From contig JAFGUD010000510.1 in NCBI GenBank assembly GCA_016938685.1, forward strand, positions 10,568-74,567: DNA of 64,000 nucleotides, in the 5' to 3' direction. This DNA is from Bacteroidales bacterium (GTDB lineage Bacteria > Bacteroidota > Bacteroidia > Bacteroidales > JAFGUD01). The notes below the pieces were generated by a model, which saw only the letters and a program-made list of their open reading frames with translations, searched no databases and was not told the origin of the DNA. Positions 7,284-58,200 of the stretch are shown piece after piece. Position 1 is the stretch's first letter, and every line of letters starts with the position of its first letter. Both the position numbers and the translations under genes were made by a program.

Positions 7284-7318
7284 TGAATAATGAATAATGA
7301 ATATCGAATAATGAAGTG
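7284..7318. repeat. Heptamer tandem block (5 units: tgaataa tgaataa tgaatat cgaataa tgaagtg)
   Basis: Read directly. Begins 13 nt from the thiolase start codon. Confidence 0.9.
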
Positions 7319-7395
7319 AAATTTAATCATTTCCTTGTGTGTAAATAATTATTTTTACATGTTCGTTTCATCTGTTTATTTTTTTAATTAAAGAA

Positions 7396-7427
7396 GTTTT
7401 CGAGTTTACCAGTTTTCGAGTTTGATT
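7396..7427. repeat. Octamer tandem block (gttttcga gtttacca gttttcga gtttgatt)
   Basis: Read directly. Same GTT..C.A word family as 17830-17965 and 24445-24532. Confidence 0.9.
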
Positions 7428-7453
7428 TATTTGAACAATCAATTATTAACCAT

Positions 7454-7495
7454 TAATTATTAATTCTTAGTTCTTAGCTCTTAATTATTTAATTA
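7454..7495. repeat. Heptamer tandem block (taattat taattct tagttct tagctct taattat ttaatta)
   Basis: Read directly. Ends at the base before the HADH stop codon (7496-7498). Confidence 0.85.
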
Positions 7496-8836
7496 TTAGT
7501 TTTTCAAAAAGTCATTTATTGGACCATAAGCGTGGAAAAATCCGGTCATTAGAACAGTATTTACATCATCTACGCTAAATGCAACTTTTGTATCAACTAA
7601 TTTTTGTCCAATTTTTCTTGAGCATTCCATATATCTCTTAGTTAAATCAGCTCCGAGAGTTTTCATACCTGAAACTTCATTAAACATTTCGCCTAAAACC
7701 TCCATTTTGTTTTTCATTCTAAGAGTAGATTTCCAAGCAACAGTTTTTTCAGGAAGATTTCCTATTCTCTTATCTGCATTTTCTTGAAAGCTTTCAAACA
7801 TTACATATTGTTTAGAATTAATGTCGTAAATAGCAATCGGTCTGCCTCTATCGTATTTAAGGAAACCATCTTTTTGAGAACCGTCGGAATTTTGTCCACC
7901 TTTAACACCTATTTCCATCATTTTGTCTAACAAATCACTATGTAAATCTTCATCAGCAAGATAAGGGTTCATAACACTCATAATATACTGACAAACATCA
8001 ACCCCCACATAATCAATAAGTTGAAAAATACCCATTGGGCGAACCATAAATTCCTGCGAAACTCTGTTTACTGTATAAAGTGCTTCTGCATATGGCATTT
8101 CTGCGGTAAGTCTTTGTACTTCATTTATTCCATGAATAGCATCGCGCATAAAATGTCCATTTCCAATAAATCCTGCGAAATCATTAGAAGGAACAACTAC
8201 TTTACCTAGATTTTTTGCATATTCTACGGCAAAAGTTTCTATTTCGGGCAATGTGTTTTCGCCTTTTATTAGCTCCACAAGTTTTTGAATAGCCGGTGGA
8301 TTATAAAAATGGAATCCTATCACTTTTCCGCCTAATTGTGCACTTTTGTCAAGATTTGAAATTGGAATTGAAGAAGTATTTGAAAAAAACCAGGTTTCTG
8401 CTGCACAATTTTCACGAACCTGAGTTAAAAGTTTTGTTTTAAGAGCGGGATTTTCAATAACAGCTTCAAAAACAATATTTGAATCATAAGCAGATTCTAA
8501 TCTTGTAGTTGGTCTTACAATTTTTAGCACATCCCAAACATATTGTTCAATAATGTCAAAATTTTCAACTAAATCAGCTCTATCTGCATATAAACCTCTA
8601 AGGGAAACCATCTTTTTTTCACCAATTTTTTTGGCTTGTACCCTTAAATAATCCATTAAACCGGTTAAACACTCCGAACAAACATCTATTGCGTTTAAAA
8701 CATAATGTTTGTTTTTATTTTCAGGTTTGAGGCTTAAATCAGCCATTTCAATTGCTGTTAAAAGTAAAATACCACTCCCCATTTTACCGGCAGCCCCAAT
8801 TACTGAAACTTTTTGTAAACGTTCTGAATATTCCAT
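7496..8836 (-). CDS. 3-hydroxyacyl-CoA dehydrogenase family protein
   Basis: N-terminal Rossmann VSVIGAAGKMGSGI; HFYNP and IGNGHF-type motifs of the HADH family; 446 aa. Confidence 0.85.
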   Translation of the reverse strand: MEYSERLQKVSVIGAAGKMGSGILLLTAIEMADLSLKPENKNKHYVLNAIDVCSECLTGLMDYLRVQAKKIGEKKMVSLRGLYADRADLVENFDIIEQYVWDVLKIVRPTTRLESAYDSNIVFEAVIENPALKTKLLTQVRENCAAETWFFSNTSSIPISNLDKSAQLGGKVIGFHFYNPPAIQKLVELIKGENTLPEIETFAVEYAKNLGKVVVPSNDFAGFIGNGHFMRDAIHGINEVQRLTAEMPYAEALYTVNRVSQEFMVRPMGIFQLIDYVGVDVCQYIMSVMNPYLADEDLHSDLLDKMMEIGVKGGQNSDGSQKDGFLKYDRGRPIAIYDINSKQYVMFESFQENADKRIGNLPEKTVAWKSTLRMKNKMEVLGEMFNEVSGMKTLGADLTKRYMECSRKIGQKLVDTKVAFSVDDVNTVLMTGFFHAYGPINDFLKN

Positions 8837-8949: not shown

Positions 8950-9642
8950 ATGATTGACCCGATAAGATACCTATACGAAAATTATAGTTTTGAAAAGTCC
9001 CAAATAAGAGAATTAATTACCGGATTAAGATATTTAGCTGTTTTGCTAAAAAATGGGGAAATTGGTGTTTGCGCAACTTTGAGCAACGATTTTGATCTTT
9101 CCCTTGATGATTTTGACAAGCCCAATTTGAATGACTTTCGGCATCGAATTTTATTAAACGCGTACTATAATGCCATTTTTAATACTGAAAAAAATGACTA
9201 TAAATACGGAGATATTACTGAAATTATTGATTTTAAGAACATTAAAGATCTGGTTATGATTGGTTATTTCAGACCGGTTGTTGAAAAATTTCAAAAAGCA
9301 GGTATTAATGTTCATATTTTTGATTTAAAAAATAAAGAGGTAACCGTTCCAATGGAATTTCAAAAAAATTACCTAAAAAAATGCGATGCCGCAATAGTTA
9401 CGGCAACTACTTTTTATAACAATACTTTTTTGGATATTACTGAAAATTGCTCCGGCGACATCTACATTTTAGGACCTTCTACAATTATGCATCCCTATAT
9501 CTTTGAATTTAGTAATGTTAAATATTTATTTGGAAGCTTATTTGAAAGAAATGACAATAGAGTTCTTGATATTATTGGCCAAGACCTGGGAACAAGACAC
9601 TTTTTAAAATTAGGGAAGAAAGTTTTTTTGAATCAAGAATGA
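8950..9642 (+). CDS. DUF4213/DUF364 Rossmann-like protein (putative heavy-metal or cofactor chelation domain family)
   Basis: Family-like layout: N-terminal LITGLRYLAVLLKNGEIGVCATL, C-terminal Rossmann-like IGYF...AAIVTATT. The first ATG is at 8950; the ORF-track TTG at 8917 is less likely. Confidence 0.6.
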   Translation: MIDPIRYLYENYSFEKSQIRELITGLRYLAVLLKNGEIGVCATLSNDFDLSLDDFDKPNLNDFRHRILLNAYYNAIFNTEKNDYKYGDITEIIDFKNIKDLVMIGYFRPVVEKFQKAGINVHIFDLKNKEVTVPMEFQKNYLKKCDAAIVTATTFYNNTFLDITENCSGDIYILGPSTIMHPYIFEFSNVKYLFGSLFERNDNRVLDIIGQDLGTRHFLKLGKKVFLNQE

Positions 9643-9852
9643 GTGAATGCTTGAATGATAGAATGAGTGAATGCTTGAATGATAAAATGATAAAATGATA
9701 AAATGATAGAATGATAGAATGATAGAATGATAGAATGATTAAATGATAAAATGATAGAATGAAGTCGGAAGTCAGCAGTAGACAGTTGGCAGTTTGTTGA
9801 AGACTGAGAACTGAAGACTGAAAGACTGAAAGACTGAAAGACTGAGAGATTG
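9637..9852. repeat. 27 phase-locked octamers (gaatgagt/gaatgctt/gaatgata/aaatgata ... gaagactg/aaagactg)
   Basis: Counted unit by unit: 216 nt = 27 x 8 with no indel. The first unit contains the TGA stop (9640-9642) of the upstream gene. The first 24 nt are duplicated exactly (9637-9660 and 9661-9684). Confidence 0.95.
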
Positions 9853-9853
9853 G

Positions 9854-10056
9854 GAACTCGAAACTCGGAACTGGGAACTCGGAACTCGAAACTCGAAACT
9901 GGGAACTCGGAACTGGGAACTCGGAACTCGAAACTCGAAACTCGAAACTCGGAACTCGGAACTGGGAACTGGGAACTCGGAACTCGGAACTCGGAACTGG
10001 GAACTCGAAACTCGAAACTCGGAACTCGGAACTCGGAACTGAGGACTGAAAGACTA
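9854..10056. repeat. 29 phase-locked heptamers (gaactcg/aaactcg/gaactgg ... gaactga ggactga aagacta)
   Basis: Counted unit by unit: 203 nt = 29 x 7. Ends 6 nt before ATG 10063. Confidence 0.95.
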
Positions 10057-10062
10057 AAAAAA

Positions 10063-11757
10063 ATGGAATTATATAAAAATAAAACAAAAACAATTTGGTA
10101 TAAAGCCGCTGCTTTGGGAAGTATTTGGGCGAGTTTTGAAATTGTACTCGGAAGTTTTTTGCACAATGTTCGTTTTCCTCTCTCCGGAACGTTATTAGCT
10201 ACTTTAGGAGTGATTTTAATGATAACTTTTGCTCAACTTTGGAACGAAAAAGGACTTTTTATTAAAGCTGGTCTTATTGCTGCGCTTATGAAATCAATTT
10301 CTCCAAGTGCAATTCTTATAGGACCAATGACAGGCATTTTTATCGAAGCTTTATTCGTTGAAATAAGCATTTTCCTAATCGGTAGAAATATATTTGGATA
10401 TTTAATAGCCGGAATTACAGCCCTGTACAGTGTTGTTATTCATAAAGTTGCAACATTACTTATTTTGTACGGCTTTGACATTGTCAGAATTACCGAAAAC
10501 TTGTATTTTTTCCTATCTAAACAACTAAACATAAACAATTTAAGTTTTTTAAACGCTCTCTTAATTTTAAGTTTTGCTTATGTAATATTAGGATTTTTTG
10601 CTGCTTTAATAGGCTTCTACACTGGAAAAATAACAAAACAAAGTAACAAAAACAATTTAGAGTTTAATGTAAAAGGATTCAAAAAAGATTTTTTAGACAT
10701 CAAAACAACTCAAAAATTTTCAGTTTATTTTTTGATATTACACCTGATAACTATCACGTCTATTTTTATTATAATCAGCAACTTAGCATTAGAATTTTCT
10801 GTAATAATCAGCGTAATTTACTTGATTTTTTGTTTTTTTAGATACAAGTCAACTTTTAGACATTTTAAAAAGGTTGGTTTTTGGATACAAATTCTAATAA
10901 TACTAATTATTTCAGTACTTTTTTACAGCGGAGTTCAAAATCTTTCGTTATTAAATAAAGATGGCTTAATAGCTGGTTTGACAATGATTTTAAGAATGTT
11001 TGTACTTGTTGTTGGATTTGCAGCAATAAGTGTTGAATTAAGAAATCCGTTTGTAAAAGCTGTTTTATTCAGAAACGGTTTCGGCAATCTGTATCATTCT
11101 TTGGGACTTGCTTTTTCAATTTTGCCGGTATTAATGGAAAAAACGACAAATCCTAAAGTTCTTGTCAAACAGCCAAGAAAAAGCATAGTTTCAATAGTCC
11201 AAAATGCAAATTCAATATATGAAAATTTTGTTGAAAATATTAAGCAAAGAAAAGTTATCATAATAACCGGAGAAAGAGGCGAAGGGAAAAGCACATACTT
11301 GCTAAATCTGACTAAAATTCTGAAAGAAAAAGATGTTTCAATTGGTGGTTTTATTGCAAAAGGACACGTAAAAGAAGGAAAAAGAAGTGGCTTCTCTATT
11401 GTGGACTTACATTCAGGCAAAGAAATGTTGCTAAGTTCTGTTGAAAAAATAGGAGAAACAAAAATCGGAAAATTCTATTTTGATTCAAACGCATTAGAAT
11501 TTGGCAAAAATATTACTTCTTATGAAAACATTTCCAAAGACAGATTTGTTGTAATTGACGAAATTGGTCCATTGGAGTTAAAAAGTCAAGGTTGGTCTTC
11601 TGTTGTCGAACAAATTTTTGAATCGCCTGAAATAATGCAAATATGGGCAGTACGAAAAGATTTAGTAAACAGTGTTTTAAGAAGATTTGCTGTTTCGGAA
11701 GCTACAATTTTTGACATTAAAAATGATGATATTGAGTCGGTAATAGAAATAATTTAA
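10063..11757 (+). CDS. Polytopic membrane protein fused to a C-terminal P-loop NTPase (THEP1/DUF2478-like)
   Basis: Start placed at the first ATG (MELYKNK...); the 71 codons upstream merely translate the heptamer repeat. About 10 hydrophobic segments over ~400 aa. Walker A GERGEGKS and Walker B FVVIDEIGPLEL. Confidence 0.75.
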   Translation: MELYKNKTKTIWYKAAALGSIWASFEIVLGSFLHNVRFPLSGTLLATLGVILMITFAQLWNEKGLFIKAGLIAALMKSISPSAILIGPMTGIFIEALFVEISIFLIGRNIFGYLIAGITALYSVVIHKVATLLILYGFDIVRITENLYFFLSKQLNINNLSFLNALLILSFAYVILGFFAALIGFYTGKITKQSNKNNLEFNVKGFKKDFLDIKTTQKFSVYFLILHLITITSIFIIISNLALEFSVIISVIYLIFCFFRYKSTFRHFKKVGFWIQILIILIISVLFYSGVQNLSLLNKDGLIAGLTMILRMFVLVVGFAAISVELRNPFVKAVLFRNGFGNLYHSLGLAFSILPVLMEKTTNPKVLVKQPRKSIVSIVQNANSIYENFVENIKQRKVIIITGERGEGKSTYLLNLTKILKEKDVSIGGFIAKGHVKEGKRSGFSIVDLHSGKEMLLSSVEKIGETKIGKFYFDSNALEFGKNITSYENISKDRFVVIDEIGPLELKSQGWSSVVEQIFESPEIMQIWAVRKDLVNSVLRRFAVSEATIFDIKNDDIESVIEII

Positions 11758-17830: not shown

Positions 17831-17965
17831 TTGGTGAGTTATCGAGTTGTTGAGTTATCGTGTTATCGAGTGGTCGAGTTATCGGGTTATCGAATTGTCG
17901 GGTTGTCGAGTTATTGAGTTATTGAGTTGTCGAGTTGTCGAGTTGTCGAGTTGTCGAGTAGACAG
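17830..17965. repeat. 17 phase-locked octamers (gttatcga/gttgtcga/gttattga family)
   Basis: Counted unit by unit: 136 nt. The first unit starts on the G of the TAG stop (17828-17830). Ends with gtagacag. Confidence 0.95.
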
Positions 17966-20135: not shown

Positions 20136-21077
20136 TTAGCCTCTTTTTAACAAATTATCAAAATATTCAATAGTTTTAACCAAACCTTCGGCTAATTTTA
20201 TTTTAGGTTCCCAGTTAAGTTTTTCTTTTGCTAAATCAATATTTGGTTTACGTTGCAATGGATCGTCCTGAGGCAATGGGAAATAAACAATTTTTGATTT
20301 AGAATTTGTCATTTGAATCACTTTATCAGCTAATTCAATTATTTGAAATTCTTCTGGATTACCAAGATTAACAGGTCCGGTAAAATCATCAGGAGAACCC
20401 ATCATTTTTGTCATTCCTGCAACTAAATCATCTACATATTGAAAACTACGCGTTTGTGAGCCATCGCCATAAATCGTAATATCTTTATTTTGAAGTGCTT
20501 GCACAATAAAATTAGAAACAACACGTCCATCATGCGGGTGCATTCTTGGTCCGTAAGTATTAAAAATTCGTATTACTTTTATTTTCACGTTATTCTGACG
20601 ATGATAATCAAAAAAAACTGTTTCCGCAGCACGTTTTCCTTCGTCGTAACAAGCTCGCGGTCCAATTGGATTTACATTTCCACGATAAGACTCCGGTTGC
20701 GGATGAACCTCCGGGTCTCCATAAACTTCACTTGTTGATGCTTGTAGAATTTTAGCATTTATTCGTTTGGCAAGCCCAAGCATATTTATAGAACCCATTA
20801 ACGATGTTTTCAGGGTTTTTATTGGATTATACTGATAATGAATAGGAGAAGCAGGACAAGCTAAATTGTAGATTTCATCAACTTCGGCATAATAAGACGT
20901 TATAATATCGTGCCTCACAACTTCAAAGTAGTGATTATCAAGCAAATGCACAATATTTTGTTTACTCCCTGTAAAATAATTATCAAGGCAAATAACATCA
21001 TTTCCCTGTTTTAAAAGAGTTTCGCATAAATGTGAACCTATAAAACCTGCGCCACCAGTTACCAGTATTCTTTTCAT
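20136..21077 (-). CDS. UDP-glucuronate decarboxylase (UDP-xylose synthase), SDR family
   Basis: [17 protein letters not shown]...DNYFTGSK...YDEGKR, typical of the UXS subfamily; 313 aa. Confidence 0.85.
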
Positions 21078-21251: not shown

Positions 21252-21629
21252 ATGAATTTAAGAACCCAAACAAAATATGCCGTTTATACTATTTCAGTTT
21301 TGATAGCTTCATTTATGAGATTGGTTGTTGGAAAAATTATAAGTCGGTACATAAACGAAGCTTCGTATTTGTCAGTTCTGATAGACATGTTGGTAATAAT
21401 TCTGGTTTTTATCCCCGTCATAAGAATATTTGAAAAATTCACGATGAAGGCAACAAAAACCTATTTAGATTCAGCAAAAAAAATCTCAAAAAACAAAAGA
21501 AAAGGACTTTGGTGGGCATTATTTTTTGCATTTTTTGTAATGTTTATACTTTTTGCAATAGTGAAATATAATCTAAATTTCATCAAAGATGCTTTTGAAT
21601 ACTTTAAACTGTTATTTGGGCAAACTTAA
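21252..21629 (+). CDS. Hypothetical small membrane protein (about 3 TM helices)
   Basis: 125-aa ORF with hydrophobic segments; no recognised family. Confidence 0.45.
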   Translation: MNLRTQTKYAVYTISVLIASFMRLVVGKIISRYINEASYLSVLIDMLVIILVFIPVIRIFEKFTMKATKTYLDSAKKISKNKRKGLWWALFFAFFVMFILFAIVKYNLNFIKDAFEYFKLLFGQT

Positions 21630-21728
21630 TTTTTCATAATTCAGACTCAATATTTAACATAAAAAAATCAAATTTGAAAAATTAAGTGATTTTAATGCAA
21701 CAATTACCTAAGAAGACAATAATTTTCT

Positions 21729-22928
21729 CTATTTAAAATCTAAAAGAAAATTTTCTAATATGATATGCTTAACCCCTTTATATGTATTTGGAGTTTGAAA
21801 ATCATCATAAGAAATTACATATTTAGGATAATTATCTTTGATTTCCAACAAGTTTCCAAATTCACGTTTTATTGTAGAGTCATCATTGAGTAAATATGCT
21901 ACTTGAAAGTATGATGTTTCATTATCTTTTTGAGCGATAAAGTCAATTTCTTTTTTTTGATTTTGTCCTACAAACACTTCATAACCTAAAATTAAAAGGT
22001 GATTATAAACAGCATTTTCAATATTCTTATTTATTTGATTAGGCTTAAAACCTGTTAAGGCATTTCTTATTCCTAAATCCTCGAAATATAATTTTTCTCC
22101 AATTTCAAAGATTCGTTTCCCTTGAATATCATATCTTTTAGCATTATTAATAAAAAACGCCTCCAAAAGATAATTGATATAAGAAGATACAACAGGAACT
22201 GATTTTTTCATGTTCTGAGATTTTAAAAAATCACTGATATTTTTAACAGAAAATAAACAGCCTGTGTTGTCTGCTAAAAATTCAATTAGATTCTCCAAAA
22301 AAGTAACATCTCTTATTTTGTGTCTCGTAATTATATCTCTAAATAAAATTGTAGCATAAATATTTTTTAGATATTCTGAAACAACAAGTTTTTCACTCTG
22401 TAAGTTTATTAAAAAAGGTAAACCGCCATAAGTCAAATAATTAAACAAATTTTCTTTTGAGCTTTTCTTATCATGAAATATTAAATATTCTGAATAAGAT
22501 AATGGATGTATTCTAATTAAAATTTGACGACCACTTAGTAATGTTGCAAACTCGCCAGAAAGCACAGTAGCATTACTCCCTGTACAATAAATATCAAAAT
22601 CTTCACGTCTTAGCAAACTTCTAAGAGCTTTTTCAAAATCGTCAATCTCCTGAATTTCATCTATAAATAAATAGTTCATTCCATTTTTTTGTTGGCTCTC
22701 AACATACAACATCAAGTCATCATAAGTTTTTATCTTATCAAATTCATGCAATTCTTTATCAATTAGTATAAAATTTGCTTCCGGATTCTGTTCTTTCAAA
22801 AATTCTAAAATCTGTTTTAGCATAAAACTTTTCCCAACTCTTCTTTGCCCTATCAACACTTTTATCAATTGTTTGTTTACAAAAGGTACGATTCTATCTA
22901 GATATATTGGACGAATTATGTTTTTCAT
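21729..22928 (-). CDS. AAA-family ATPase with DUF4143 C-terminal domain (COG1373 type)
   Basis: Walker A GQRRVGKS and Walker B YLFIDEIQ; C-terminal region with a nuclease-fold-like EIDFI motif; 399 aa. Confidence 0.8.
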   Translation of the reverse strand: MKNIIRPIYLDRIVPFVNKQLIKVLIGQRRVGKSFMLKQILEFLKEQNPEANFILIDKELHEFDKIKTYDDLMLYVESQQKNGMNYLFIDEIQEIDDFEKALRSLLRREDFDIYCTGSNATVLSGEFATLLSGRQILIRIHPLSYSEYLIFHDKKSSKENLFNYLTYGGLPFLINLQSEKLVVSEYLKNIYATILFRDIITRHKIRDVTFLENLIEFLADNTGCLFSVKNISDFLKSQNMKKSVPVVSSYINYLLEAFFINNAKRYDIQGKRIFEIGEKLYFEDLGIRNALTGFKPNQINKNIENAVYNHLLILGYEVFVGQNQKKEIDFIAQKDNETSYFQVAYLLNDDSTIKREFGNLLEIKDNYPKYVISYDDFQTPNTYKGVKHIILENFLLDFK

Positions 22929-23098: not shown

Positions 23099-24418
23099 TT
23101 ATATTCTCCTACCAATTCCATAATAAACAAAACCATTTTCCATTACTTCTTTGGGTTCATAAATATTTCTACCATCAAAAATAACTTTTTCTTTTACAAT
23201 TTTAGATAAAATGTTGTAATTCAACATCTTAAACTCATTCCACTCTGTTACCAACAAAACCGCATCGGCATCATTTGCAGCATCGTACTGGTCTTTTGAA
23301 TATTCAATAACATCACCAATTCTACGTTTAGTTTCTGGCATAGAAACAGGATCGTAACCTTTTACTTTTGCTCCGGCTTCGATAAGTTTTTCAATAATAA
23401 CTAACGCCGGTGCTTCGCGCATATCGTCTGTGTTTGGTTTAAAAGCTAAACCCCAAAGTGCAATTGTTTTTCCTTTTATATCACCATTAAAATGAACTAA
23501 AAGTTTGTCAACAAGAATGCTTTTTTGAGCATCATTTACGTCTTCAACAGATTGAATAACATTCATTGGAACTCCATTTTCATTACCTGTTCTGATAAGA
23601 GCTTTTACGTCTTTTGGAAAACAAGATCCGCCATAACCAGTACCTGCGTACAAAAATTTGCTTCCAATACGAGTATCAGAGCCAATTCCGCGACGAACAC
23701 TGTTTACATCTGCTCCAACTTTTTCACACAACTGAGCAATTTCGTTCATGAAACTGATTCTGGTTGCCAACATTGCATTTGCAGCGTATTTTGTTAGTTC
23801 AGCCGAAGGAATATCCATGAATAAAATCGGATGATTATTCAACAAAAATGGTTTGTAAAGCTTTCGCATTACCTCTGTTGCTTGTTCTGTATCAGTTCCA
23901 ATTACAATTCTGTCGGGTTTCATAAAATCAAGAATTGCGTCACCTTCTTTTAAAAATTCAGGATTTGAGGCAACATCAAATTTATAATCAACACCTCTTT
24001 TGTCTAATTCTGCCTGCAAAGCTCCACGAACTTTCTCTGCTGTGCCAACAGGAACTGTACTTTTAGTTACAACAACCATATAATGATCCATTGTTTTTCC
24101 TATGCTTCGGGCAACTTCAAGAACATATTTTAGGTCAGCACTTCCGTCTTCGTCAGGAGGTGTACCAACGGAAATAAAAGCAACATCAGCACCAACAATG
24201 CTTTCATTAATATCTGTTGAGAACCAAAGTCTTTTTTTCTCAACATTTTTTTCGATCATGGCATCTAAACCGGGTTCGTAAATAGGAACGATTCCGTTTT
24301 TTAAATTGTCAATTTTTTGTTGGTCAATATCAACACAACATACATTAACTCCTGTTTCGGCAAAACATGTGCCCGTAACAAGTCCAACGTATCCTGTTCC
24401 AACTACTGAAATTTTCAT
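23099..24418 (-). CDS. ugd: UDP-glucose 6-dehydrogenase
   Basis: MKISVVGTGYVGLVTG (NAD fold) and catalytic GGSCFPKD; 439 aa. Confidence 0.92.
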   Translation of the reverse strand: MKISVVGTGYVGLVTGTCFAETGVNVCCVDIDQQKIDNLKNGIVPIYEPGLDAMIEKNVEKKRLWFSTDINESIVGADVAFISVGTPPDEDGSADLKYVLEVARSIGKTMDHYMVVVTKSTVPVGTAEKVRGALQAELDKRGVDYKFDVASNPEFLKEGDAILDFMKPDRIVIGTDTEQATEVMRKLYKPFLLNNHPILFMDIPSAELTKYAANAMLATRISFMNEIAQLCEKVGADVNSVRRGIGSDTRIGSKFLYAGTGYGGSCFPKDVKALIRTGNENGVPMNVIQSVEDVNDAQKSILVDKLLVHFNGDIKGKTIALWGLAFKPNTDDMREAPALVIIEKLIEAGAKVKGYDPVSMPETKRRIGDVIEYSKDQYDAANDADAVLLVTEWNEFKMLNYNILSKIVKEKVIFDGRNIYEPKEVMENGFVYYGIGRRI

Positions 24419-24420
24419 AT

Positions 24421-24588
24421 TATTAAGTTTATTAAGTTTATAAAGTTATCGAGTTAATCAGTTATCGAGTTAACCAGTTTGCCAGTTAACCAGTTATCGA
24501 GTTAACCAGTTTACCAGTTTACCAGTTAACCGGTGTTTAGTTTATAGTTAATTTTCAAATCACCAAATTTTCAAATCATCAAATCAAA
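24421..24588. repeat. Tandem mosaic: 2 nonamers (gtttattaa gtttataaa), about 12 GTT-anchored octamers (gttatcga/gttaacca/gtttacca...), 4 CAAAT-anchored octamers
   Basis: Read directly. Starts 3 nt from the ugd start codon (24416-24418) and extends to the distal -7-like box. Confidence 0.9.
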
Positions 24589-24592
24589 AATA
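24585..24592 (-). promoter_or_regulatory. -7-like box TATTTTTG at the distal edge of the repeat array upstream of ugd
   Basis: Plus-strand caaaaata. If used, the whole array would be a ~165-nt 5' leader. Confidence 0.35.
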
Positions 24593-24721
24593 TAGTATTT
24601 GAAAACCATTAATTTAAACTATTCTACAAAAATGGTTAAATTTTATTTTTTAACAAATTTGCGATAAATAATTAAACTTAAAAATGACAAAAATCGTATT
24701 GATAATTGCGAAAAATCAGGT

Positions 24722-24757
24722 ATAAAAAAACCCGCAACTTTTTAGAAGCGGGTTTTA
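24722..24757 (-). terminator. Rho-independent terminator after the COG2403/CPGS-like gene
   Basis: Stem cccgc (24731-24735) / gcggg (24748-24752), extended by A/T pairs. T-run follows on the minus strand. Confidence 0.8.
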
Positions 24758-24780
24758 AATTATAAATTATCAACTGTAAT

Positions 24781-26115
24781 TTATTTTACATATTTTGCAA
24801 CAAATTCGTCAATAACTTGTGTTAAATTAGGCTCACCAATTTCTTGAAGATCATAATATACACGTGTATTTGGTTTGTTGATTTTAATAATACGGTTCAA
24901 GTCAATTGGAGTACCAATAACTACTGAGTCACAATCTGTATTGTTGATTGATTTTTCAAGGTCAGCAACTTGTTGGTCACCATAACCCATTGCAGGAAGA
25001 AGAGTTCCAATATTTGGATAAATTTTGAAAGTTTCTGCCAATTTTCCAACAACAAAAGGACGAGGATCTACTAATTCAGCAGCACCGAATTTTTTAGCAG
25101 CAACAGTACCTGCCCCAATTTTCATTTCGCCGTGAGTTAGAGTTGGTCCGTCTTCTACAACTAATACGCGTTTTCCTTTAATAAGCTCAGGATTATCAAC
25201 TTTAATAGGAGAAGCTCCGTCGATTACAATTGCATTTGGATTAATTTTAGCGATATTGTCACGAACTTTTTGGATTTTTTTAGGAGCAGCAGTTTCCATT
25301 TTGTTGATAACTATTACGTCAGAAATACGCATCATTGTTTCACCAGGGTAATAAGAAACTTCGTGTCCCGGTCTGTGTGGGTCAGCAACACAAACAGTTA
25401 AATCAGGTTTGTAGAATGGGAAGTCGTTATTTCCACCGTCCCAAAGAACAACATCACAACCATCAGGATCGTTTTCAGCAGCGCGAACGATTGCTTCATA
25501 ATCAACACCAGCATAAATTACGTTTCCACGAACTACGTGTGGTTCATACTCTTCCATTTCTTCGATTGTACATTTGTGAAGTTTTAAATCTTCAACAGTT
25601 GCAAAACGTTGAACTTTTTGAGCTACTAAATCACCATAAGGCATTGGGTGACGAACAGCAACAACTTTTAGTCCTTTTTCCATCAATAATTCGATGATTC
25701 TACGAGAAGTTTGGCTTTTGCCACAACCTGTACGAACAGCACCAACAGCAATAACAGGTTTTGTGCTTTTTACCATAGTTTCTTTTGTACCAAGAAGAAT
25801 AAAATCAGCTCCGGCAGCATTAACTTGTGCACTAATATTCATTACTCTTTTGTAAGGAACATCACTGTATGAAAATACACATTGGTCAACATCATGTTCT
25901 TTGATTATTTTTTCCAAATCACCTTGATCGAAAATTGGAATACCTGCAGGATATAATTTTCCGGCTAATTCAGCAGGATATTTACGACCATCAATGTCAG
26001 GAATTTGAGCAGCTGTAAAAGCAACTACGTTGAATGCTTCGTTATCTCTGTAATAAGTGTTAAAATTGTGGAAATCTCTACCGGCTGCGCCGATAATAAC
26101 TACATTTTTTTTCAT
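24781..26115 (-). CDS. Cyclic 2,3-diphosphoglycerate synthetase-like protein / COG2403 predicted P-loop NTPase
   Basis: N-terminal Rossmann-like VVIIGAAGRDFHNFN; P-loop VRTGCGKSQT; 444 aa. Family assignment is from memory of this architecture. Confidence 0.65.
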   Translation of the reverse strand: MKKNVVIIGAAGRDFHNFNTYYRDNEAFNVVAFTAAQIPDIDGRKYPAELAGKLYPAGIPIFDQGDLEKIIKEHDVDQCVFSYSDVPYKRVMNISAQVNAAGADFILLGTKETMVKSTKPVIAVGAVRTGCGKSQTSRRIIELLMEKGLKVVAVRHPMPYGDLVAQKVQRFATVEDLKLHKCTIEEMEEYEPHVVRGNVIYAGVDYEAIVRAAENDPDGCDVVLWDGGNNDFPFYKPDLTVCVADPHRPGHEVSYYPGETMMRISDVIVINKMETAAPKKIQKVRDNIAKINPNAIVIDGASPIKVDNPELIKGKRVLVVEDGPTLTHGEMKIGAGTVAAKKFGAAELVDPRPFVVGKLAETFKIYPNIGTLLPAMGYGDQQVADLEKSINNTDCDSVVIGTPIDLNRIIKINKPNTRVYYDLQEIGEPNLTQVIDEFVAKYVK

Positions 26116-26375
26116 AATTATTAAATTAAAAAGTTATTAATGTTTGTAAAGCTTGTAAAGAATATAATTCTACTTTTCCATTCTTCAACGTTATACTTTA
26201 CAAACTTCCAACTATGTTTCATGACAAAATTAAAGATTTTAAACAAATTCCAAATTTTATTAAATATTTTTAAAATAAAAACAAATAAAATACTGATAAT
26301 CAATAGATTAAATTAAAATGTTTTTAAGCTATTTAATACATGAGTAAAGTCATTTATCAATTTGGCAATAAGCTG

Positions 26376-26415
26376 ATTTGACGATTTTATAATTTGATGA
26401 TTTTAAAATTTAACA
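26376..26415. repeat. Short degenerate octamer run (atttgacg attttata atttgatg attttaaa atttaaca)
   Basis: Read directly. Five ATTT-anchored units. Confidence 0.6.
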
Positions 26416-26466: not shown

Positions 26467-26474
26467 TACATTTG
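26467..26474 (+). promoter_or_regulatory. -7 box TACATTTG upstream of the MFS transporter gene
   Basis: 19 nt upstream of ATG 26493. Argues against the ORF-track TTG start at 26472. Confidence 0.5.
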
Positions 26475-49268: not shown

Positions 49269-52200
49269 TTAATTGTGCAATATTATCTTTTTTGTGTATA
49301 TTTTATCATTAATATATACAATTATAGTGTACATTCCTTCTGAAACATAATACAAATCATATATATTATATCTCAATGAAGGATGATGTTCTTCAATAAG
49401 TCTCCCCGACACATCAAAAATACTAATTTTTGTGTTATTATCAGGTATTTCTTTTGTGTTTATGAAAACCTTCATCAAATCACTATAAATTACCACATCT
49501 TGTTCTTCTTGAGTTTTATTTGCTTCTATAGTTTGTTCTAATTTATTGAACCAAATAACAAAACGATCTCTAAAAACACCTGGTTCTGAATGGAAAACAT
49601 ATTGATTTTCAGGACTTAACTTAACACTTACATTTCTATAATTATCTCTTAAGTATGCACTTGTAGAATCGGGCAAATTTATTTGATTTGAAATTATTGA
49701 ATACTGTCCGCTCGTACCTACTTTTATTCCCAAAGGAACAATTGTATTATCTTCAATATTTGGACAACTAGCTATAGAAAGGTTTAAGTTATCGTCACTA
49801 ATTGAAAACAGATACGGTACTTCATCAGAATATCCAACAAGTTTTATAGCGTCCAATTGCCCATCGAAGTTATTTGTTGCATTAGGAATAAAACGCAAAA
49901 CTACCTCATCTTCAATTAGTTCATTATCAATAGACAATCTTATTGTTGGAGGTTCAGCAACGGGAGATTTATAAAAAGCAGTAGGATTATGAATTCTGGA
50001 ATCATTTGTTACCTGAATTGAAGCACCTGGAGCATTTGCTCTTACAAAAAATGATTGACCAATCGGAATGCAACCAGACACACGGTTTATAACAATTGAA
50101 GGATACGGATTCAAATTAGATTCAGGTAAAAAATAAGAATAATTATTATAAGAACCTGAGCCGTCATCTTTGTAAAAATATATAGCTCCATCTATGTTTA
50201 TTTTGGAAATATTATCATTATCATACCAATTTAATGTCGAAGGATAAGGATTCCCAACAAGATTCCAACCATCAAAAACAGCATTGCCGTGTGTGCCAGT
50301 ATTATCTGTATATGTTAGATTATATAGAATATTTCCATCGTTAAATTCACCTTCGTAATTAATTGTATCTTCCAATTGGTAAGTAATGTACCCTTGCATA
50401 ACGTTCAATATTCCTGTAGCATTTGTCCAGCCCATTAAACCACCCGTGAAATTATCCATACTCCATGAATCCGATAGACTTTCATCGTACCAATAGAAAT
50501 TTGGAGCAAAAAACAATCCAGCGTCAGCATCTACAATTGGACTTGAAATATAATGCCACATTGCCTCACTAATATAACTTTGCACAGTTGTTGTGCCAGC
50601 TCCGTAATTTATTACTCCTTTGTTAATAAAAGAACCTGTTCCTGTTGGATCAGATTGAACAACAAAATCTCCGTTTTGATTCATATTTCCCCAAACTGTT
50701 AAATATTTATTTGGAGCAATATATAAATGCGCGCCTGCCTGAATTGTCAAATTTTTAGTTTCTGCAAGGTTATCTATATTGCTGTTAGTTTCAGGGAAAT
50801 AGCCTCCAACCGGAGTAGTAGGAATTACAACATTTGTAGCATTTGAAACATAAGTATTAGGTAACCAGTTTGTTACTATATTCCAATCGTTACTAGTGTT
50901 TCCAGTCCAAATAACGCTTCCGAGATATTCGTCGGCTCCAATATATGGTGGATTTTGACGAGTTTCTCCGTCTAAGTCAATTGTTATTCCGGTAGAATTA
51001 TCTCCAACTTGCAATCCTGCATTTTCTGTATGCAAATTGGTTATAGACAAATAAACTGGGTTAATTGTTATCGAATTTGCTCCTTTTCCTACAAAATCAG
51101 GCAAGAAATTATTGAAATTTTCGATTGAATTTATTAAACTTGTAACATCATAACTAATTGCAGAAGCTGATATAAAATTATTGTTTTTTATATTTAAAAA
51201 TTCAGCCGTATTAATTCTTATTCCGCTACCATTTGGACTTAAAACATTGGTACTATTGAATAAAACATTGATGTATTCACTACTTCCTGTACTACTCTCG
51301 ATGTTTATACCGTAGCTTGTTGCAGAATTTCCAATAGCCAGCATGTTGTTAATTAATTGAGCTTCATTACCCAAAGAACAAGCAACATCATCTAAAAACA
51401 AACCATAACCATCAGCAGACGAAGAAGATATGATGTTACCAATCAAATAAAATTCGGTATTTGCAGTTATACAAGATATTCCTCTAAAATCGTTTCGTGT
51501 TGAATTTGTTGAAAAATCATTATTTAAAATAAATGGAGAACTAATATTTTGAAGCCATAATCCACCAGCCGACTGATTTTTAAACACATTATTAATTAAA
51601 TAAAGACTATCTATATTTTGACTAGAATTTTTACCAGTTATATTAAGAGCAAAACTTCCGTTATTAAATTCACAATTATTAAAATTGATATTTCCGGAAT
51701 TTGTAATTGTATCCTTTGTATAAACTAAAGCAAAATCATTAGTATTTAAGGCAGTTGAAATCCCATTAAATTCACAATCGACAAAATTAATATGATGTGT
51801 ATTTTCTGAAATTTCAAGAACTCTGCCATTTGTTGCACCTAAAGCTCTAAAATCGAAATTTTTAAAAGTAATATATTTTGTTCTATACAACTTTAGAGTA
51901 TAGTTCTCATCAATATCAGAATCGTATTGAAGAACTGCACTTCCACAGTCATCACACCAAGTTTCAAAAGTAATTGTATTAGTTTCACTTGCACCGCATA
52001 TAGTTCCAATTTGGATTTGCTCATCAAAAGCAATATCAGCCACATTAAAATGAACAGGTCCACTAATACCAAATAGTTCCAGACTATCTATTGCTGATTG
52101 AAAATCAGGAAAACTTCCGGTTCCATCAATTATTCTGTCTCCTTCCATCGCATCAACAGGATTAAAGGCAACATTTCCTTCAAGCAAAATCTGAAAATCA

Positions 52201-55200
52201 CAAGTATTTCCTGCTACACCATCGATTGTAATATAATACTGAGTTTCGGGCAACAAATCCAATGGATTCCACACAATATCATTTTCATTTCCGGGATAAG
52301 CACAAAAAACCTCAGTATGATTATCGGGTTCGCATGCTGGTTCTGCGTCTAATCGTGTTATTGCTACCTGAAGTCCAGTACCTCCAGGAGAGCAAACAAT
52401 ATTGTCAAAAGTTACCGAAACTTCTCCGCCCCTACAATTTGTTGTAAAATAATACCACGAAGTATTTTCAAGTGTAACACCAGAGCATGGGGTTGTAGAA
52501 AAATCAGGATCTTCAAAAAGATTTACAGTTGCATTATCGTTACTTGTTGCACTTGTTGTTGCATTTATGAGTTCAATTGCTGCAACGCAATTATCATTAC
52601 AATGCGGAAATTCATCAACTCGTGCATAAATTGTGTCATTAATAGGAATTTCGTCAATCATTCCATTTGGATTTTGTATCCAAACTACTAGAGAACTAGG
52701 TCTTGGATCAATATTGTACATTTGTAATTCGGTAACATGGATACCATTTGATGCTTCGCCATAAGTATTGTACATTCTATAATAACGATAAGAGACAGTA
52801 TTATCAAAATAAAAATTCTGCCAAGTATTCATGCTTAGATTTCCATAATAAATATTATCCAAAACATCCCAATTAGAACCATCATTTGAACCTTGAAATT
52901 GCCAAGTTCCGGGGTTATAAATTTCATTTCCACTATATCCGGGTGTTTCAGAAGAACTACAATAAATTCTGTATGTATTAACAGAAGCTTCATTTCCAGC
53001 ACCTAAATCATACTGCAACCAACATGGCATTACGTAGGTATTAGACCAGCCTGAGGTTGAAATATTTCCATCAAATGCTCTGCTTGGAGAACTTCCGGAA
53101 TATGTATGACTTGCAGAAGCAGTACCACCTGTGCAAATATTATTGCCTAATGACAACCCATTTGGAATTGTAATATTTGGAATTATGATGGTTTCAAACT
53201 GACCGGCTTCAATATTAACAGGATAAGTATTACAAGTTAATGAACCATCTATATCATAACAAACATCAATAGAAGTAATTGTATTTGGATCAGTAGCAAC
53301 TCCATTATTATCAACAGCACTTGTAGAACCAATCCAACACGTATTAATATCCATATTTACAAGAGTTCCATCATGTCCATTTCCGGTAACGTCGGTTAAA
53401 ACTGAGCTTCCGGCGCCATCTTCCATTTGATAATAGGCAACTAAACCTCCTTCTGATCCAAGTAAAGTATTACAAATATTAGATCTTAATTCATCTCCTG
53501 ACAATGCATAGTCCCAAATCCTAACTTCATCAAGAGCTGCATTTGTTGGGTAAGAACTATTATTACGTGCTCCTAAATACCAATTAGAAGCAGCTATAGA
53601 ATAATTTCCACTTCGAGTATATATTTCTTCTCCATTTAGAAAAACTTTTAATTCTACACCATCAGAAGTAACTGCAACGTGTGACCAATCACCTACAGGC
53701 AAATATCTTCCGGTATTTATCCAAGAACCAATTGCCGGAATATAAAAATACAAAAGGCCACTGTTCATTTTAACAATTTCAAATCTATTGCTTTCTGCTA
53801 CAACGGACATTCTATAATCTCCAACTCCATCTGCAGGATTAAGTATCCAATATTCAGCTGTAAAGTTTGATAATTCAGGAAATGCTCCTAGTTCAATTCT
53901 GTCATTTGAGTTATCAAATTGAATAGCAGTTTGCCCCTCAAAAGGACATGGATCAAACAACTGACAGAAATTATTTCGATTTGCAATATCTACTTCAAGC
54001 TGATATTCTGTTCCATAACAACCTGAAACACTTACTAACTCAGCATCTAAATCTGTATCTGTAATTGTAATATTATCAAAAGCAAAAAAGTTTCTAGAAC
54101 GATAGTCTGTGGTCCCTGAAACGCCATAATAAGCATAACCGGAAATTCTTAATTTAACACATGATTGTCCTTTCAGATTACATAAATTATGCTCTACATA
54201 AGTCCAATCATCAAACGGATTTTGTTGATTATTATACCAATAATTTGTATTGCCGGCATACCAATCAGGATCAGCATCAGTTCCGAGCTGAGTCCAAGTA
54301 GTACCACCATTTATAGAATATTCAACATGAAAATAAGAATAGTAATTATAAAGCTGATATTTAATTTGAAAAGATAAAATCGGATTTTCTACTTCAGTAA
54401 AATCAAAAACAGGACTTTCAACCCATAACAATTCATACGATCCATGTGTCGAAACATCAACATACCATGAATCTCCATTAGTTTCATTTCCATTAAGATA
54501 ATCAAATTGTCCGTGAACAAAGTTTCTGGTAGGAGTTGCTGAATTATTACCAGTTCTCCAATATTCTGTTCCATTATTAAAGTCAGCATAATAAGGAAAT
54601 GTATTAATCAAGGTATCAAGAGTTGTTATAGACTGATGAATAGTATCATTCGATGGAAAGTCATCTGGAATTAAATCTGTATATGCTGTAAAATTATAAG
54701 TACCTACACTTCTCAAGTCAACAGAAGTAGGAAATGTGTATATTACGCTAGTATTTGCCGGAATATTAACTGTTCCTGACAAATTATAAATAATACCCCC
54801 AGGACCTTCAATATCACAATAAACAGGAACATTAACCAAATCATGACAAGAAGCACTTTTAACTCTTACTGTTACTTCTTTTGTCTCATCAAAAGTACAA
54901 GGTGCTTCATTATTGATAGGGGTAATAAAATCACTAACTGAGGCATCTTGAAATCCATCAATAATTCTAAAATTATCAAAACCGAAATAATTTCGATCTC
55001 GATAATCTGTTACTCCGGAAATGCCATAATAAGCGTAACCTAAAACTCTAAATTTTACGCATGACTCGCCTGCAAAAGAACATAAATTATGAAAAACTGT
55101 TGTCCAATCATTTACCTCATTTGGATAATTTCCGTACCACCAATTTGTATTACCTTCGTACCAATCTGGATCTGAATTATTTCCAAGTTGAGACCAAGTA

Positions 55201-58200
55201 TTTCCACCATTTAAAGAATATTCAACATGAAAGTATGAATAATATGTAGAAAGTTCATATTTTATATCCATTAATAAAAAAGGATCAGTAACAGCTGAGA
55301 AATCAAAAACAGGACTTTCTGCCCAAATTTTATAATATTCTGCATGACGCGTTACATCTACATACCAACTTTCTCCTTCTCCTTCAGCCCCATCAAGATA
55401 TGGTATATTTCCCCATACAAATTCCCTTCCTCTATCTAAATCAGGCAATGTAGGCTCGTCACCACCTGCCAGCCAATAATCATTATCTCCGTTAAAATCT
55501 GCGACATAAGGATATGTTGTTATTCGCGGGAATGGCACAAAAATGCTCATTTGAGTATCATCATTATCCAGATTTGCATCAGGAACAAGACTTGTATAAG
55601 CATCGAAATGATAATTACCAATAGGCAACATATCAAAAGTTCCCGAAAAAGTATAATCAACAGAAGAGCCTGGAGCAATACTTGCAACTGTTCCAGAAAA
55701 AGAAGCTAATGGAGTTCCATTAAACGTAACATCAACATTAACAGGGACATCAACTGCTTCTGTACAACTCCAATTATAAACTGTAACAGTAACTATTTGA
55801 GCATCAGAATATAAACAACCAACATCGTTTGGGTCGGGATCAATAATTGCCGTAACTCCCACGTCTTGTGCATCGATAATCTGAAAATTATCCATAGCAA
55901 AATAATTTCTTTCGCTATAATCAGTTTGGTCTGTTAAGGTATTATTTGATTGCTGTGGTCCGTAATACGCATAACCATAAATTCTAAATTTAACACAAGA
56001 TTGTCCCGTTAGTTCACATAATTTCCGTTGATAAGAGGTCCAAGAATCAACACTATTTGGATAATTTCCATACCACCAATTTGTACTTCCTTCATACCAA
56101 CCGGGATCTGCGCTCGAACCAAGTTGTGTCCAACTAGTGCCACCGTTTATTGAATACTCTACATGAAAATAAGAATAGTAAGTTGATAGTTCGTACTTTA
56201 AATCAAGTTTAAGAATTGGGTCAACAGCACCGGATAAATCAAAAACAGGCGATTCAACTCCAATCATTGTTGTGTTACCATTTGTAGTTGTCTCAACATA
56301 CCAACTATCTCCTTGTCCGTCAGCTCCATTCAGATAAGGTACTTCTCCGCGTCTAAAATGCCTTGTTCCATCAACATTTGAATTTACTCGAGAAACCCAA
56401 CCACCATTTCCGGAGTTAAAATCTTCAAGATAGTTATTTCCGGGAGAAACAGCAATTGGCGAATTATTTATTCTAATTTCGGAATAAGAATCATTAGAAT
56501 TATCCATGTCAGTCGGGAGGCTTGTTGTAACTGTAATCGTGTGATTTCCAATAGCCGACAAATCTGCAGTAGCTGTAAATGTGTATAAATAACTTCCAAA
56601 ACGAGGAACAGGTCCAGGCATAACTTCTGTGGCAATGTCTGTACCATCAACATTTAAAGTAATTGGAACATCATATAATGGTCGGCATAGATTATTATTT
56701 ACTACAACCTGTATTGTTTCATTAGAAGAAGAAGAACCGCAAACACCTGAATTATTGAGAGTTATAGCAATAGGTTCTGCGTCATCGCTTGTTCCTCCAT
56801 CTATTCTAAAATTATCAATTGCAAAATAATTTCTGTCTCGATAATCGGTTGTTCCTGAAATACCATAATAAGCATAACCATATATTTGAAATTTCACACA
56901 CGGTTCACCGGATAATTCACATAAATCTCGTTCGAAATTAGTCCAATCTGTAACAGGAGTTGCGTAATTTCCATACCAATAATTTGTGTTTCCCTGATAC
57001 CAATTAGGATCTGCATTTGTTCCAAGTTGATACCAAGTAATTCCTCCATCTTTTGAATATCGTACCTGAAAATAAGAATAATATGTAGAAAGTTGATATT
57101 TTAAATCCATAGAAAGAACAGGATTAGAGACATCAGAAAAGTCAAAAACCGGACTTTCAACCCAAATTAACTCATAAGAACCATGAGTTGTAACATCAAC
57201 ATACCAAGAATTACCTTCTCCTTCATGACCATCAAGATAAGGTAAAGTACCCCAGACAAATTCCCTGCCACTCGGCTGATTGTTTCCTCCGGCAATCCAA
57301 TATCCATCATTTGAATTAAAATCTTCAACATACGGATAAGTAGTTATTTTTGGAAAATCTACGGAAATAGATACTCTTGCAGTATCGTTATCATGACTAA
57401 TATCACCAGGCATTTCAGTCCAGGAAGTAAAATTATAAATCCCCATTGGGGTCATATCAAATGTGGCTGGAAAAGCATAACTTGTTGTTCCATTAGCTGT
57501 TACAACAGGTACTGTTCCTGAAAATAATAAAGGAGAAAAAGCATAATCGGGATGACCAACAGGTAATTCAACCAGACATTTTACCGGCGCATTATATACT
57601 TCACCACAACCATAATTTCTAACTGAAATTGTAACTGTTTGATTTTGACTGTATAAACAACCGGATGCTGATGAATTTGGGTCTGTAATAGCAAATACTC
57701 CAACTTCAGGACTATCTATTATTTTAAAATTATCAAAAGCAAAGTAATCTCTTTCACTGTAATCAGTTTGTGGCATCAAATAATTATTATCAGCTTGAGG
57801 TCCATAATAAGCATAACCATAAACTCTGAATTTTACGCATGATTTTTCGGAAGGATCTAATGAAACAATATTACACAAACTATGCTGAACTGTTGTCCAT
57901 TCATCTATTTCGTCAGGATAATTTCCGTACCACCAATTTGTGTTTCCTTCGTACCAACTTGGGTCAGCATTTGTGCCAAGTTGTGTCCAGTTTGATCCAC
58001 CATTGATAGAATATTCAACATGAAAATAAGAATAATAAGTAGATAAACTGTATTTTATATCCATAAAAAGAACCGGATCTGATGCTCCATTAAGATCAAA
58101 AACTGGCGATTCAGCCCAAATAAGAGTTGTGTTTCCATGAGTCTTTGTTTCAACATACCAACTTTCTCCTTCTCCTTCAGCTCCGTTCAAATAAGGAACT

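Follow-up and report, generated by a model that had tools for sequence, protein, structure and literature searches.

Short tandem repeats in the probable 5' leader of ugd in an uncultured Bacteroidales bacterium

Introduction

Intergenic arrays of short tandem repeats, among them the TAACTGA repeats and the cyanobacterial short tandemly repeated repetitive (STRR) heptamers, have been recognized for decades, and to our knowledge their function has never been established. The STRR heptamers were reportedly described by Mazel et al. in 1990, and the rotated GGGAACT units found in the window, that is, in the whole stretch of 64,000 nucleotides analysed here, resemble the reverse complement of STRR1 (ACTGGGG).

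The system closest to the repeat array upstream of ugd in this window is the TAACTGA class of Beggiatoaceae, Cyanobacteria, and some Bacteroidetes (MacGregor 2015, PMC4679880), and the next closest are the STRR heptamers and the Nostoc recF/recO repeats. Like the TAACTGA repeats, the ugd array is built of short units in head-to-tail order with a TAACT core, and it lies in forward orientation in an intergenic region near a start codon, extending from 24531 right up to the nucleotide next to the ATG. In both cases many sets of repeats are mixed with other short-unit arrays (seven in the 64 kb covered here, four of them with an AACT core), and draft assemblies break inside the repeats (PMC4679880). 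However, the ugd units are 8-9 nt long (GGTTAACT, CGATAACT, and, in a related locus, CGACAAACT) instead of 7 nt, and TAACTGA itself occurs at ugd only once, within CGATAACTGATTAACT and not in tandem, the shared core being TAACT followed by G or C. The host also differs, being an uncultured Bacteroidales bacterium of 32% GC, and the heptamers of the window are of the GGAACTC type. By unit length and sequence, the ugd array falls outside the TAACTGA class taken strictly and is its sister, not a member.

The STRR and Nostoc PCC 7120 recF/recO repeats also form dispersed families in noncoding spacers near promoters and starts, several per genome, as here (preprint 10.1101/2022.06.06.494920), but they come from another phylum and have other units (the ugd period is 8-9), and for Nostoc some reporter evidence of an effect exists. 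Since deletion of heptamer repeats in Nostoc changed reporter output (same preprint), such arrays are not always inert. Phase-variable simple sequence repeat loci of Haemophilus (PMC12721329) resemble the ugd locus in having a tandem repeat 5' of a surface-polysaccharide-related gene with a copy number that varies between lineages, and a tract placed in the 5' UTR can affect expression. In contrast to classic phase-variable tracts, which are near-perfect, have units of 1-7 nt, and are placed inside a reading frame or between the elements of a promoter, the ugd array is heterogeneous, lies between a conserved promoter block and the ATG, and has sisters at housekeeping and convergent genes. Similarly scattered noncoding tandem families common to several loci are the prokaryotic satellites (Subirana and Messeguer 2019, PMC6749651), but that survey deals mainly with longer units and does not cover the lineage of the window. 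Intergenic short tandem arrays are thus a known class, to which the ugd array adds a case with 8-9-nt units in an uncultured Bacteroidales bacterium.

Results

The gene ugd encodes UDP-glucose 6-dehydrogenase, and all three UDP-glucose/GDP-mannose dehydrogenase domains are present in its product (Table 1). Direct reading, Tandem Repeats Finder, and autocorrelation all confirmed the array upstream of it as described in an earlier note on this DNA. The order given there, octamers and then two nonamers, also holds, although the octamers number 11 and not about 12: GGTTAACT occurs four times, CGATAACT three times, GGTAAACT twice, and GGCAAACT and GATTAACT once each. The intergenic region (24419-24780) is 362 nt long, and the repeats form its ATG-proximal 172 nt, not the entire upstream region as had been proposed. 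Tandem Repeats Finder detected periods of 8, 16, and 32 over 24444-24528 with 76%, 82%, and 93% matches, respectively (score 133 for period 32), and a period of 9 over 24420-24447. The lag-8 autocorrelation over 24421-24592 is 0.63, as against 0.30 +/- 0.034 for shuffled sequences (n=2000, maximum 0.40), so the repeats are real and far above chance level. The tract is heterogeneous, with five different octamers among the 11 units. The nonamers and the following TAATAAT (24443-24419) are AU-rich and contain no Shine-Dalgarno sequence. A small ORF within the array was considered and excluded; the array has neither an ATG nor an open frame, TAA being present in each unit on both strands. The sole other contig found to encode an identical Ugd (L081; Logan SRR13394436) comes from the same strain and begins inside the octamer array, its positions 1-93 being identical to the window over 93 nt, which fits the breaking of short-read assemblies at repeats.

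Table 1. Positions of the features discussed, in the window unless another locus is named
Feature	Position	Strand	Remarks
Arrays in the thiolase spacer	7284..7498	-	TTCATTA x4.6, CGAAAACT/GGTAAACT x3.6, AATAATT x8
Three abutting arrays	9637..10040	+	GAATGATA x16, AAGACTGA x6.5, GGAACTC x27
Sister array, 15.5 octamers	17836..17959	-	GACAACTC/GATAACTC, the CGATAACT unit rotated
ugd	23099..24418	-	UDP-glucose 6-dehydrogenase, 439 aa; Pfam PF03721, PF00984, PF03720, E 7e-70 to 8e-35
TAATAAT	24425-24419	-	abuts the ugd ATG at 24418
Two nonamers	24443-24426	-	TTATAAACT, TAATAAACT; directly 3' of the octamers
Octamer array, 11 units	24531-24444	-	read directly; higher-order structure of periods 16 and 32
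Unique spacer	24552-24532	-	ATTAACTATAAACTAAACACC; holds the likely seed motif ATAAACTAAACA
ATTTG ladder, five 8-nt units	24592-24553	-	TATTTTTG ATTTGATG ATTTGAAA ATTTGGTG ATTTGAAA
Best ugd promoter candidate	24657..24627	-	TTTG (24657-24654), 19 nt, CATTTTTG (24634-24627)
Conserved upstream box	24676..24695	-	GATTTTTGTCATTTTTAAGT; GATTTTT[G/A]TCATT... in six loci
Terminator-like hairpin and T-run	24724..24756	-	AAAACCCGC, 12-nt loop, GCGGGTTTT, then more T; ends the 444-aa gene
444-aa gene upstream of ugd	24781..26115		no Pfam or NCBIfam match
Second, inverted ladder copy	26374..26410	+	upstream of the MFS gene
TAnnTTTG box of the MFS gene	26467..26474	+	TACATTTG; 18 nt 5' of the MFS ATG (26493)
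ugd leader, L212	39 nt from block end to ATG		no repeats
ugd leader, L211	67 nt from block end to ATG		no repeats
ugd leader, L082	92 nt from block end to ATG		no repeats
ugd leader, window	208 nt from block end to ATG		ladder and 13 units
ugd leader, L085	469 nt from block end to ATG		short ladder and 45 units
AGTAAGT heptamer array	L011 4331-4404		
AACTAAA heptamer array	L012 4311-4388		
AACTGCT heptamer array	L015 4431-4498		

The gene upstream of ugd encodes a protein of 444 aa, for which an exact look-up gave no match. It ends in a hairpin and T-run, read by eye and missed by the terminator call of a sigma-70 promoter scan, a scan that is not applicable to Bacteroidota. The relative L085 shares both this gene and its terminator with the window, and in L211, L087, and L084 an analogous hairpin lies 5' of the promoter of ugd. 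Because the upstream gene ends in this way, ugd should have its own promoter. The best candidate agrees with the Bacteroidota sigma-A consensus of a -33 TTTG and a -7 TAnnTTTG (PMC7366714) in having TTTG, a spacing within 19-21 nt, a TAnnTTTG-like box, and conservation, the first base of the box being C and not T. TTTG-N19-CAT[T/A]TTTG was found with identical spacing in five of the seven ugd orthologue loci (the window, L085, L082, L211, and L212), and this block is shared even where the gene upstream of ugd differs. TTTG-N19-21-NANNTTTG is not significantly enriched in the window (17 observed vs 13.8 expected); our promoter calls therefore rest on conservation and not on motif matches. A further box, GATTTTT[G/A]TCATT(TTTAAGT), precedes the -33 TTTG by about 20 nt. 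It is present in the window, L085, L082, L087, L211, and L212 irrespective of the upstream gene and may serve as a site for a regulator or as an upstream promoter element.

In Bacteroidota the -7 box occupies positions -12 to -5 (PMC9723704). From this and the position of the block, transcription of ugd most likely starts near 24622, about 5 nt past CATTTTTG, and the ladder and the array would probably be transcribed within a 5' leader of about 204 nt. Such a leader is long, yet not exceptional, as the 5' UTRs of B. thetaiotaomicron have a median length of 32 nt with 13.5% exceeding 100 nt (PMC7366714). The earlier suggestion of a long leader containing the repeats is strengthened by a conserved promoter-like block upstream of both ladder and array, itself preceded by a conserved terminator hairpin.

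Relatives of Ugd with 86-90% identity were taken from a protein database and their contigs compared with the window; a scan of genome contigs with Ugd gave relatives of at most 70% identity, which are too distant for spacer comparison. From the end of the promoter block to the ATG, the surplus length in the window and L085 consists of repeats (Table 1). The array is absent from five of the seven orthologue loci (L211, L212, L082, L084, and L087), and the ladder from L211, L212, L082, and L087. Neither is present in L211, which is the nearest Ugd relative (90% identity) and has the same ugd-SDR-CotH order as the window. The unit number differs between species from 13 (window) to 45 (L085). The L085 array consists of CGACAAACT (25 units), CGATAACT (7), CGATAAACT (7), CGACAACT (4), and two end units, and is more homogeneous than that of the window, with 90% matches. 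Its leader ends with CGATAACT TTATAAACT AAATAAT before the ATG; as the window array also closes with CGATAACT TTATAAACT, the two represent one locus with fast turnover of units. In L084, which has no array, AATAAACTAAACAATAGCTCAACTAAAACAG is found at the place matching the unique spacer of the window. The motif there, AATAAACTAAACAATAGCTCAACT, that is, AATAAACTAAACA...CAACT, looks like the unexpanded seed of the window array. This comparison indicates that the promoter block is conserved, and that the ladder and the array, downstream of it, arose by recent expansion restricted to certain lineages and change rapidly.

The five units of the ladder gave a period of 16 over 24550-24584 (2.2 copies) in Tandem Repeats Finder. 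The mirror-image ladder reported earlier upstream of the MFS gene (ATG at 26493, 426-aa product confirmed as called) proved to form a 37-nt inverted pair with it (24550-24586 and 26374-26410), 86% complementary, for whose degenerate consensus 0 matches are expected by chance. The motif ATTTGAYGATTTKA is confined to the two ladders in the window and the ugd locus of L085. The units had been regarded as promoter-core motifs. Only the first unit, TATTTTTG (24592-24585), is an exact match to TAnnTTTG, and upstream of TATTTTTG no TTTG was found at 19-21 nt, only TTTA at 22 nt. As the -33 element is sometimes undetectable in Bacteroidota (PMC7366714), its absence weakens the case for this box without deciding it. 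The TATTTTTG box, which lies 35 nt downstream of the promoter block, is absent in L085, L211, L212, L082, and L087, the ladder of L085 being shortened and boxless. The ladder copy at the MFS gene is 57-93 nt upstream of a -7 box that is conserved in orthologues (TACTTTTG in L214 and TAAATTTG in L215), and no ladder was found at these two loci. The ladder is thus downstream of the conserved promoter at ugd and upstream of the conserved -7 box at the MFS gene. We also considered whether the 444-aa gene belongs to a mobile element with the two copies as its terminal inverted repeats, and rejected this because L085 and L084 keep the gene beside ugd with no second ladder.

In the window, array units 1-8 (24531-24468) are predicted to form a single hairpin with an MFE of -33.7 kcal/mol (z -3.4; centroid -27.4 kcal/mol), because GGUUAACU is self-complementary. 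This hairpin is not conserved: the L085 array is predicted to form only 4-bp UCGA helices, in a ladder of degenerate register, and its centroid is unpaired, and five orthologue loci have no array. The predicted centroids of the other window arrays are weak or partial. Rfam 15 gave no match at gathering score in the whole window, and only sub-threshold matches at 24300-24800, mostly on the terminator hairpin. The predicted structure is a by-product of the unit sequence and not a conserved feature.

The ugd array is one of seven arrays (period 6-10, at least 4 copies) in the 64 kb of the window, or 10.9 per 100 kb, as against 1.8 per 100 kb in 80 unrelated ugd loci, where most of the arrays belong to Bacteroidota MAGs. 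All seven lie in intergenic spacers, at most reaching the last bases of a gene, and four contain an AACT core, for which a rough chance expectation is about 0.1 per array. Units of the ugd array recur in two others, CGATAACT at 17836-17959 and GGTAAACT at 7395-7423. The former array begins 6 nt past the stop of an OmpA/VWA gene (17830) and lies between this gene and a convergent CotH/T9SS gene (stop 18027), and hence has no promoter or 5' leader role. The arrays at 9637-10040 make up nearly the whole 420-nt spacer from a DUF364 gene to an NTPase gene (ATG 10063) and produce spurious long ORFs (9850..11757, 9572..10093, and 9633..10166), and those at 7284-7498 lie between the genes for a 3-hydroxyacyl-CoA dehydrogenase and a thiolase. 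At 9763-9799, the arrays of the NTPase spacer are separated by a gaagtcggaagtcagc stretch. It is similar to a 27-nt element, GTTGTCAGACTGAGCGAAGTCGAAGTC, that occurs three times in L082 (6716-6940), interleaved with AACAATG arrays, and the two may represent a dispersed unit associated with arrays.

The AACT-type arrays located 5' of starts in the lineage (7395-7423, 9800-10040, and ugd) are all in sense orientation, which for three independent spacers corresponds to p ~0.125. In L082, six copies of ACAATGAA stop 5 nt short of the TilS ATG, AAACAATG arrays reach the UvrD ATG, and 17 copies of a 14-mer extend from an SDR stop codon onward. Arrays meet stop codons as often as start codons, as expected if repeats expand up to the coding sequence. 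An exact scan of metagenomes for three AACTSGNN units gave at least 120 stretches, with GC contents from 32% to 69% among the matches listed. For 86 arrays among the matches listed, from mixed taxa and with crude ORF calls, orientation 5' of starts was sense in 20 and antisense in 21, and 12 arrays lay between convergent ORFs. Among viral contigs, matches to the AACT core numbered 18, and those to two permuted-core controls 18 and 11. We therefore make no claim of a general AACT enrichment, only of recurrence of the core within this genome. Heptamer arrays of about 10 copies each were also seen at or just past the ugd stop in other Bacteroidales/Prevotellaceae MAGs (Table 1).

Discussion

We propose, with moderate confidence, that the repeats expanded by slippage and unequal exchange within the transcribed leader of ugd, that any effect on expression is incidental, and that they have no function dedicated to ugd. 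The repeats at 24419-24592 would be a local case of a class of short tandem repeats, hypervariable, intergenic, and built of 7-9-nt units, that is found throughout the lineage and many members of which appear to have a common AACT(C/G)G core. In this scenario, a short seed (ATAAACT/CAACT) in the 5' untranslated leader would have grown by these processes, downstream of a transcription start about 5 nt past TTTG-N19-CATTTTTG. The leader, about 35-90 nt in relatives without repeats, would thereby have reached about 204 nt. The array would be tolerated because the initiation of translation in Bacteroidota is independent of a Shine-Dalgarno sequence (PMC6847099) and the last 25 nt are still AU-rich. 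A longer leader and a hairpin based on GGUUAACU would be by-products that could vary with copy number. The better fit of periods 16 and 32 than of period 8 is expected of block duplication, and long arrays in Gramella and Aequorivita are also missing from the matching spacer of close relatives (PMC4679880). Several observations stand against an incidental origin of any effect: the sense orientation of all AACT arrays 5' of starts, which is a prediction of RNA-level function, the stable hairpin predicted in the window array, the two ladder copies upstream of two genes, and the reporter effect seen in Nostoc. Slippage and the absence of a dedicated function nevertheless seem probable.

Alternatively, the arrays may be a lineage-wide post-transcriptional signal with ugd as one member of the regulon, which we regard as unlikely. 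Sense AACU repeats at starts would be bound by S1, a cold-shock-type protein, or the ribosome, and would tune the translation of Bacteroidota mRNAs that have no Shine-Dalgarno sequence. In addition to the uniform orientation, this would explain why arrays stop 0-22 nt 5' of the starts of ugd, the NTPase gene (10063), the thiolase gene (7271), and TilS and UvrD in L082. The same has been proposed for the TAACTGA repeats (MacGregor, PMC4679880), and the Nostoc reporter data hint at effects (preprint 10.1101/2022.06.06.494920). However, most ugd orthologues manage without an array, and the units are so diverse (AACTCG, AATGATA, TTCATTA, and ACAATGAA) that one binder is unlikely. The arrays of L082 contain an AUG in each unit, a poor fit to a translation enhancer, and the nearly equal numbers of sense and antisense arrays in the crude metagenome survey give no support. 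The abutting of stops as often as starts, together with the array between convergent genes, fits spacers that fill with repeats.

A role at the DNA level is more doubtful. The ladder would be an operator for a regulator common to ugd and the MFS gene, or the array a contingency locus for phase variation. The two 86%-identical ladders, both in sense orientation upstream of nearby genes and with a motif found nowhere else in the window, could be a shared binding site, and the GTTAAC palindromes of the array could bind a dimeric protein; the copy number of the array also differs greatly between the window and L085. On the other hand, the array is downstream of the likely promoter, so that copy number leaves promoter spacing unaltered, and its units vary (76% matches at period 8), whereas phase-variable tracts are typically near-perfect. 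The ladder lies at about +30 to +70 from the likely ugd start but 5' of the MFS promoter, and no regulator gene is evident nearby. A shared protein-binding site is possible for the ladder, but conservation gives it no support, since neither the ugd nor the MFS orthologues conserve the ladder.

A bolder proposal, to which we likewise give little credence, joins the two preceding ones. Sense AACU arrays of 7-9-nt units at starts would be a genome-wide, copy-number-tunable signal for translation or mRNA stability, acting through an RNA-binding protein or the Shine-Dalgarno-independent ribosome; the ugd array would heritably set the supply of UDP-glucuronate and UDP-xylose, and the duplicated ladder would be a DNA-level operator of ugd and the MFS gene.

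Least probable of all is the scheme of the earlier note, in which the ladder is a set of overlapping sigma-A promoter cores in 8-nt register, or a binding platform, and the array a structured leader for UDP-glucuronate supply: in spite of the exact TATTTTTG match, the second ladder copy 5' of the MFS gene, and the predicted hairpin, a stack of working promoters is unlikely because one of the five units fits TAnnTTTG, with no -33 TTTG, and placement differs at the two genes, such matches being frequent by chance at 32% GC and a better-conserved promoter lying 35 nt upstream, while a leader dedicated to ugd is not supported in view of five of seven orthologue lineages without an array, including the closest, of the different 45 units with no stable predicted structure in the other array-bearing orthologue, and of like arrays at unrelated and convergent genes.

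The ugd locus offers an unusually clean natural comparison, in which one conserved promoter block is followed by leaders of 39 to 469 nt whose length is set only by repeat content. Because leader length varies behind one conserved promoter, the function of the array is directly testable with reporter fusions. There is also a lesson for annotation: such arrays yield false long ORFs (9850..11757 and 9572..10093) and break short-read assemblies, as in L081, and a TTTG-rich repeat unit should not be taken for a promoter.

Other observations in the window

GTTAAC occurs 11 times in the window, compared with about 22 expected from base composition. Four of these sites are inside the ugd array (24469-24525) and the others are at 192, 4563, 13786, 31415, 34440, 40799, and 58615, so that the rest of the window has about three-fold fewer of these palindromes than expected. 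This scarcity may reflect restriction avoidance or a general avoidance of palindromes.

Downstream of ugd, an AAA_14/DUF4143 ATPase gene and an opposite-strand 125-aa ORF (21252-22928) lie between ugd and an SDR gene similar to UDP-glucuronate decarboxylase (20136..21077). As ugd and the SDR gene are adjacent or nearly so in L084, L085, and L211, an insertion between them in the window is suggested. Elsewhere, a 4303-aa ORF at 49269-62180 with Laminin_G_3, F5/8 type C, and MAM-like domains probably encodes a giant surface or adhesin protein, and it is followed by two genes with T9SS C-terminal sorting domains.
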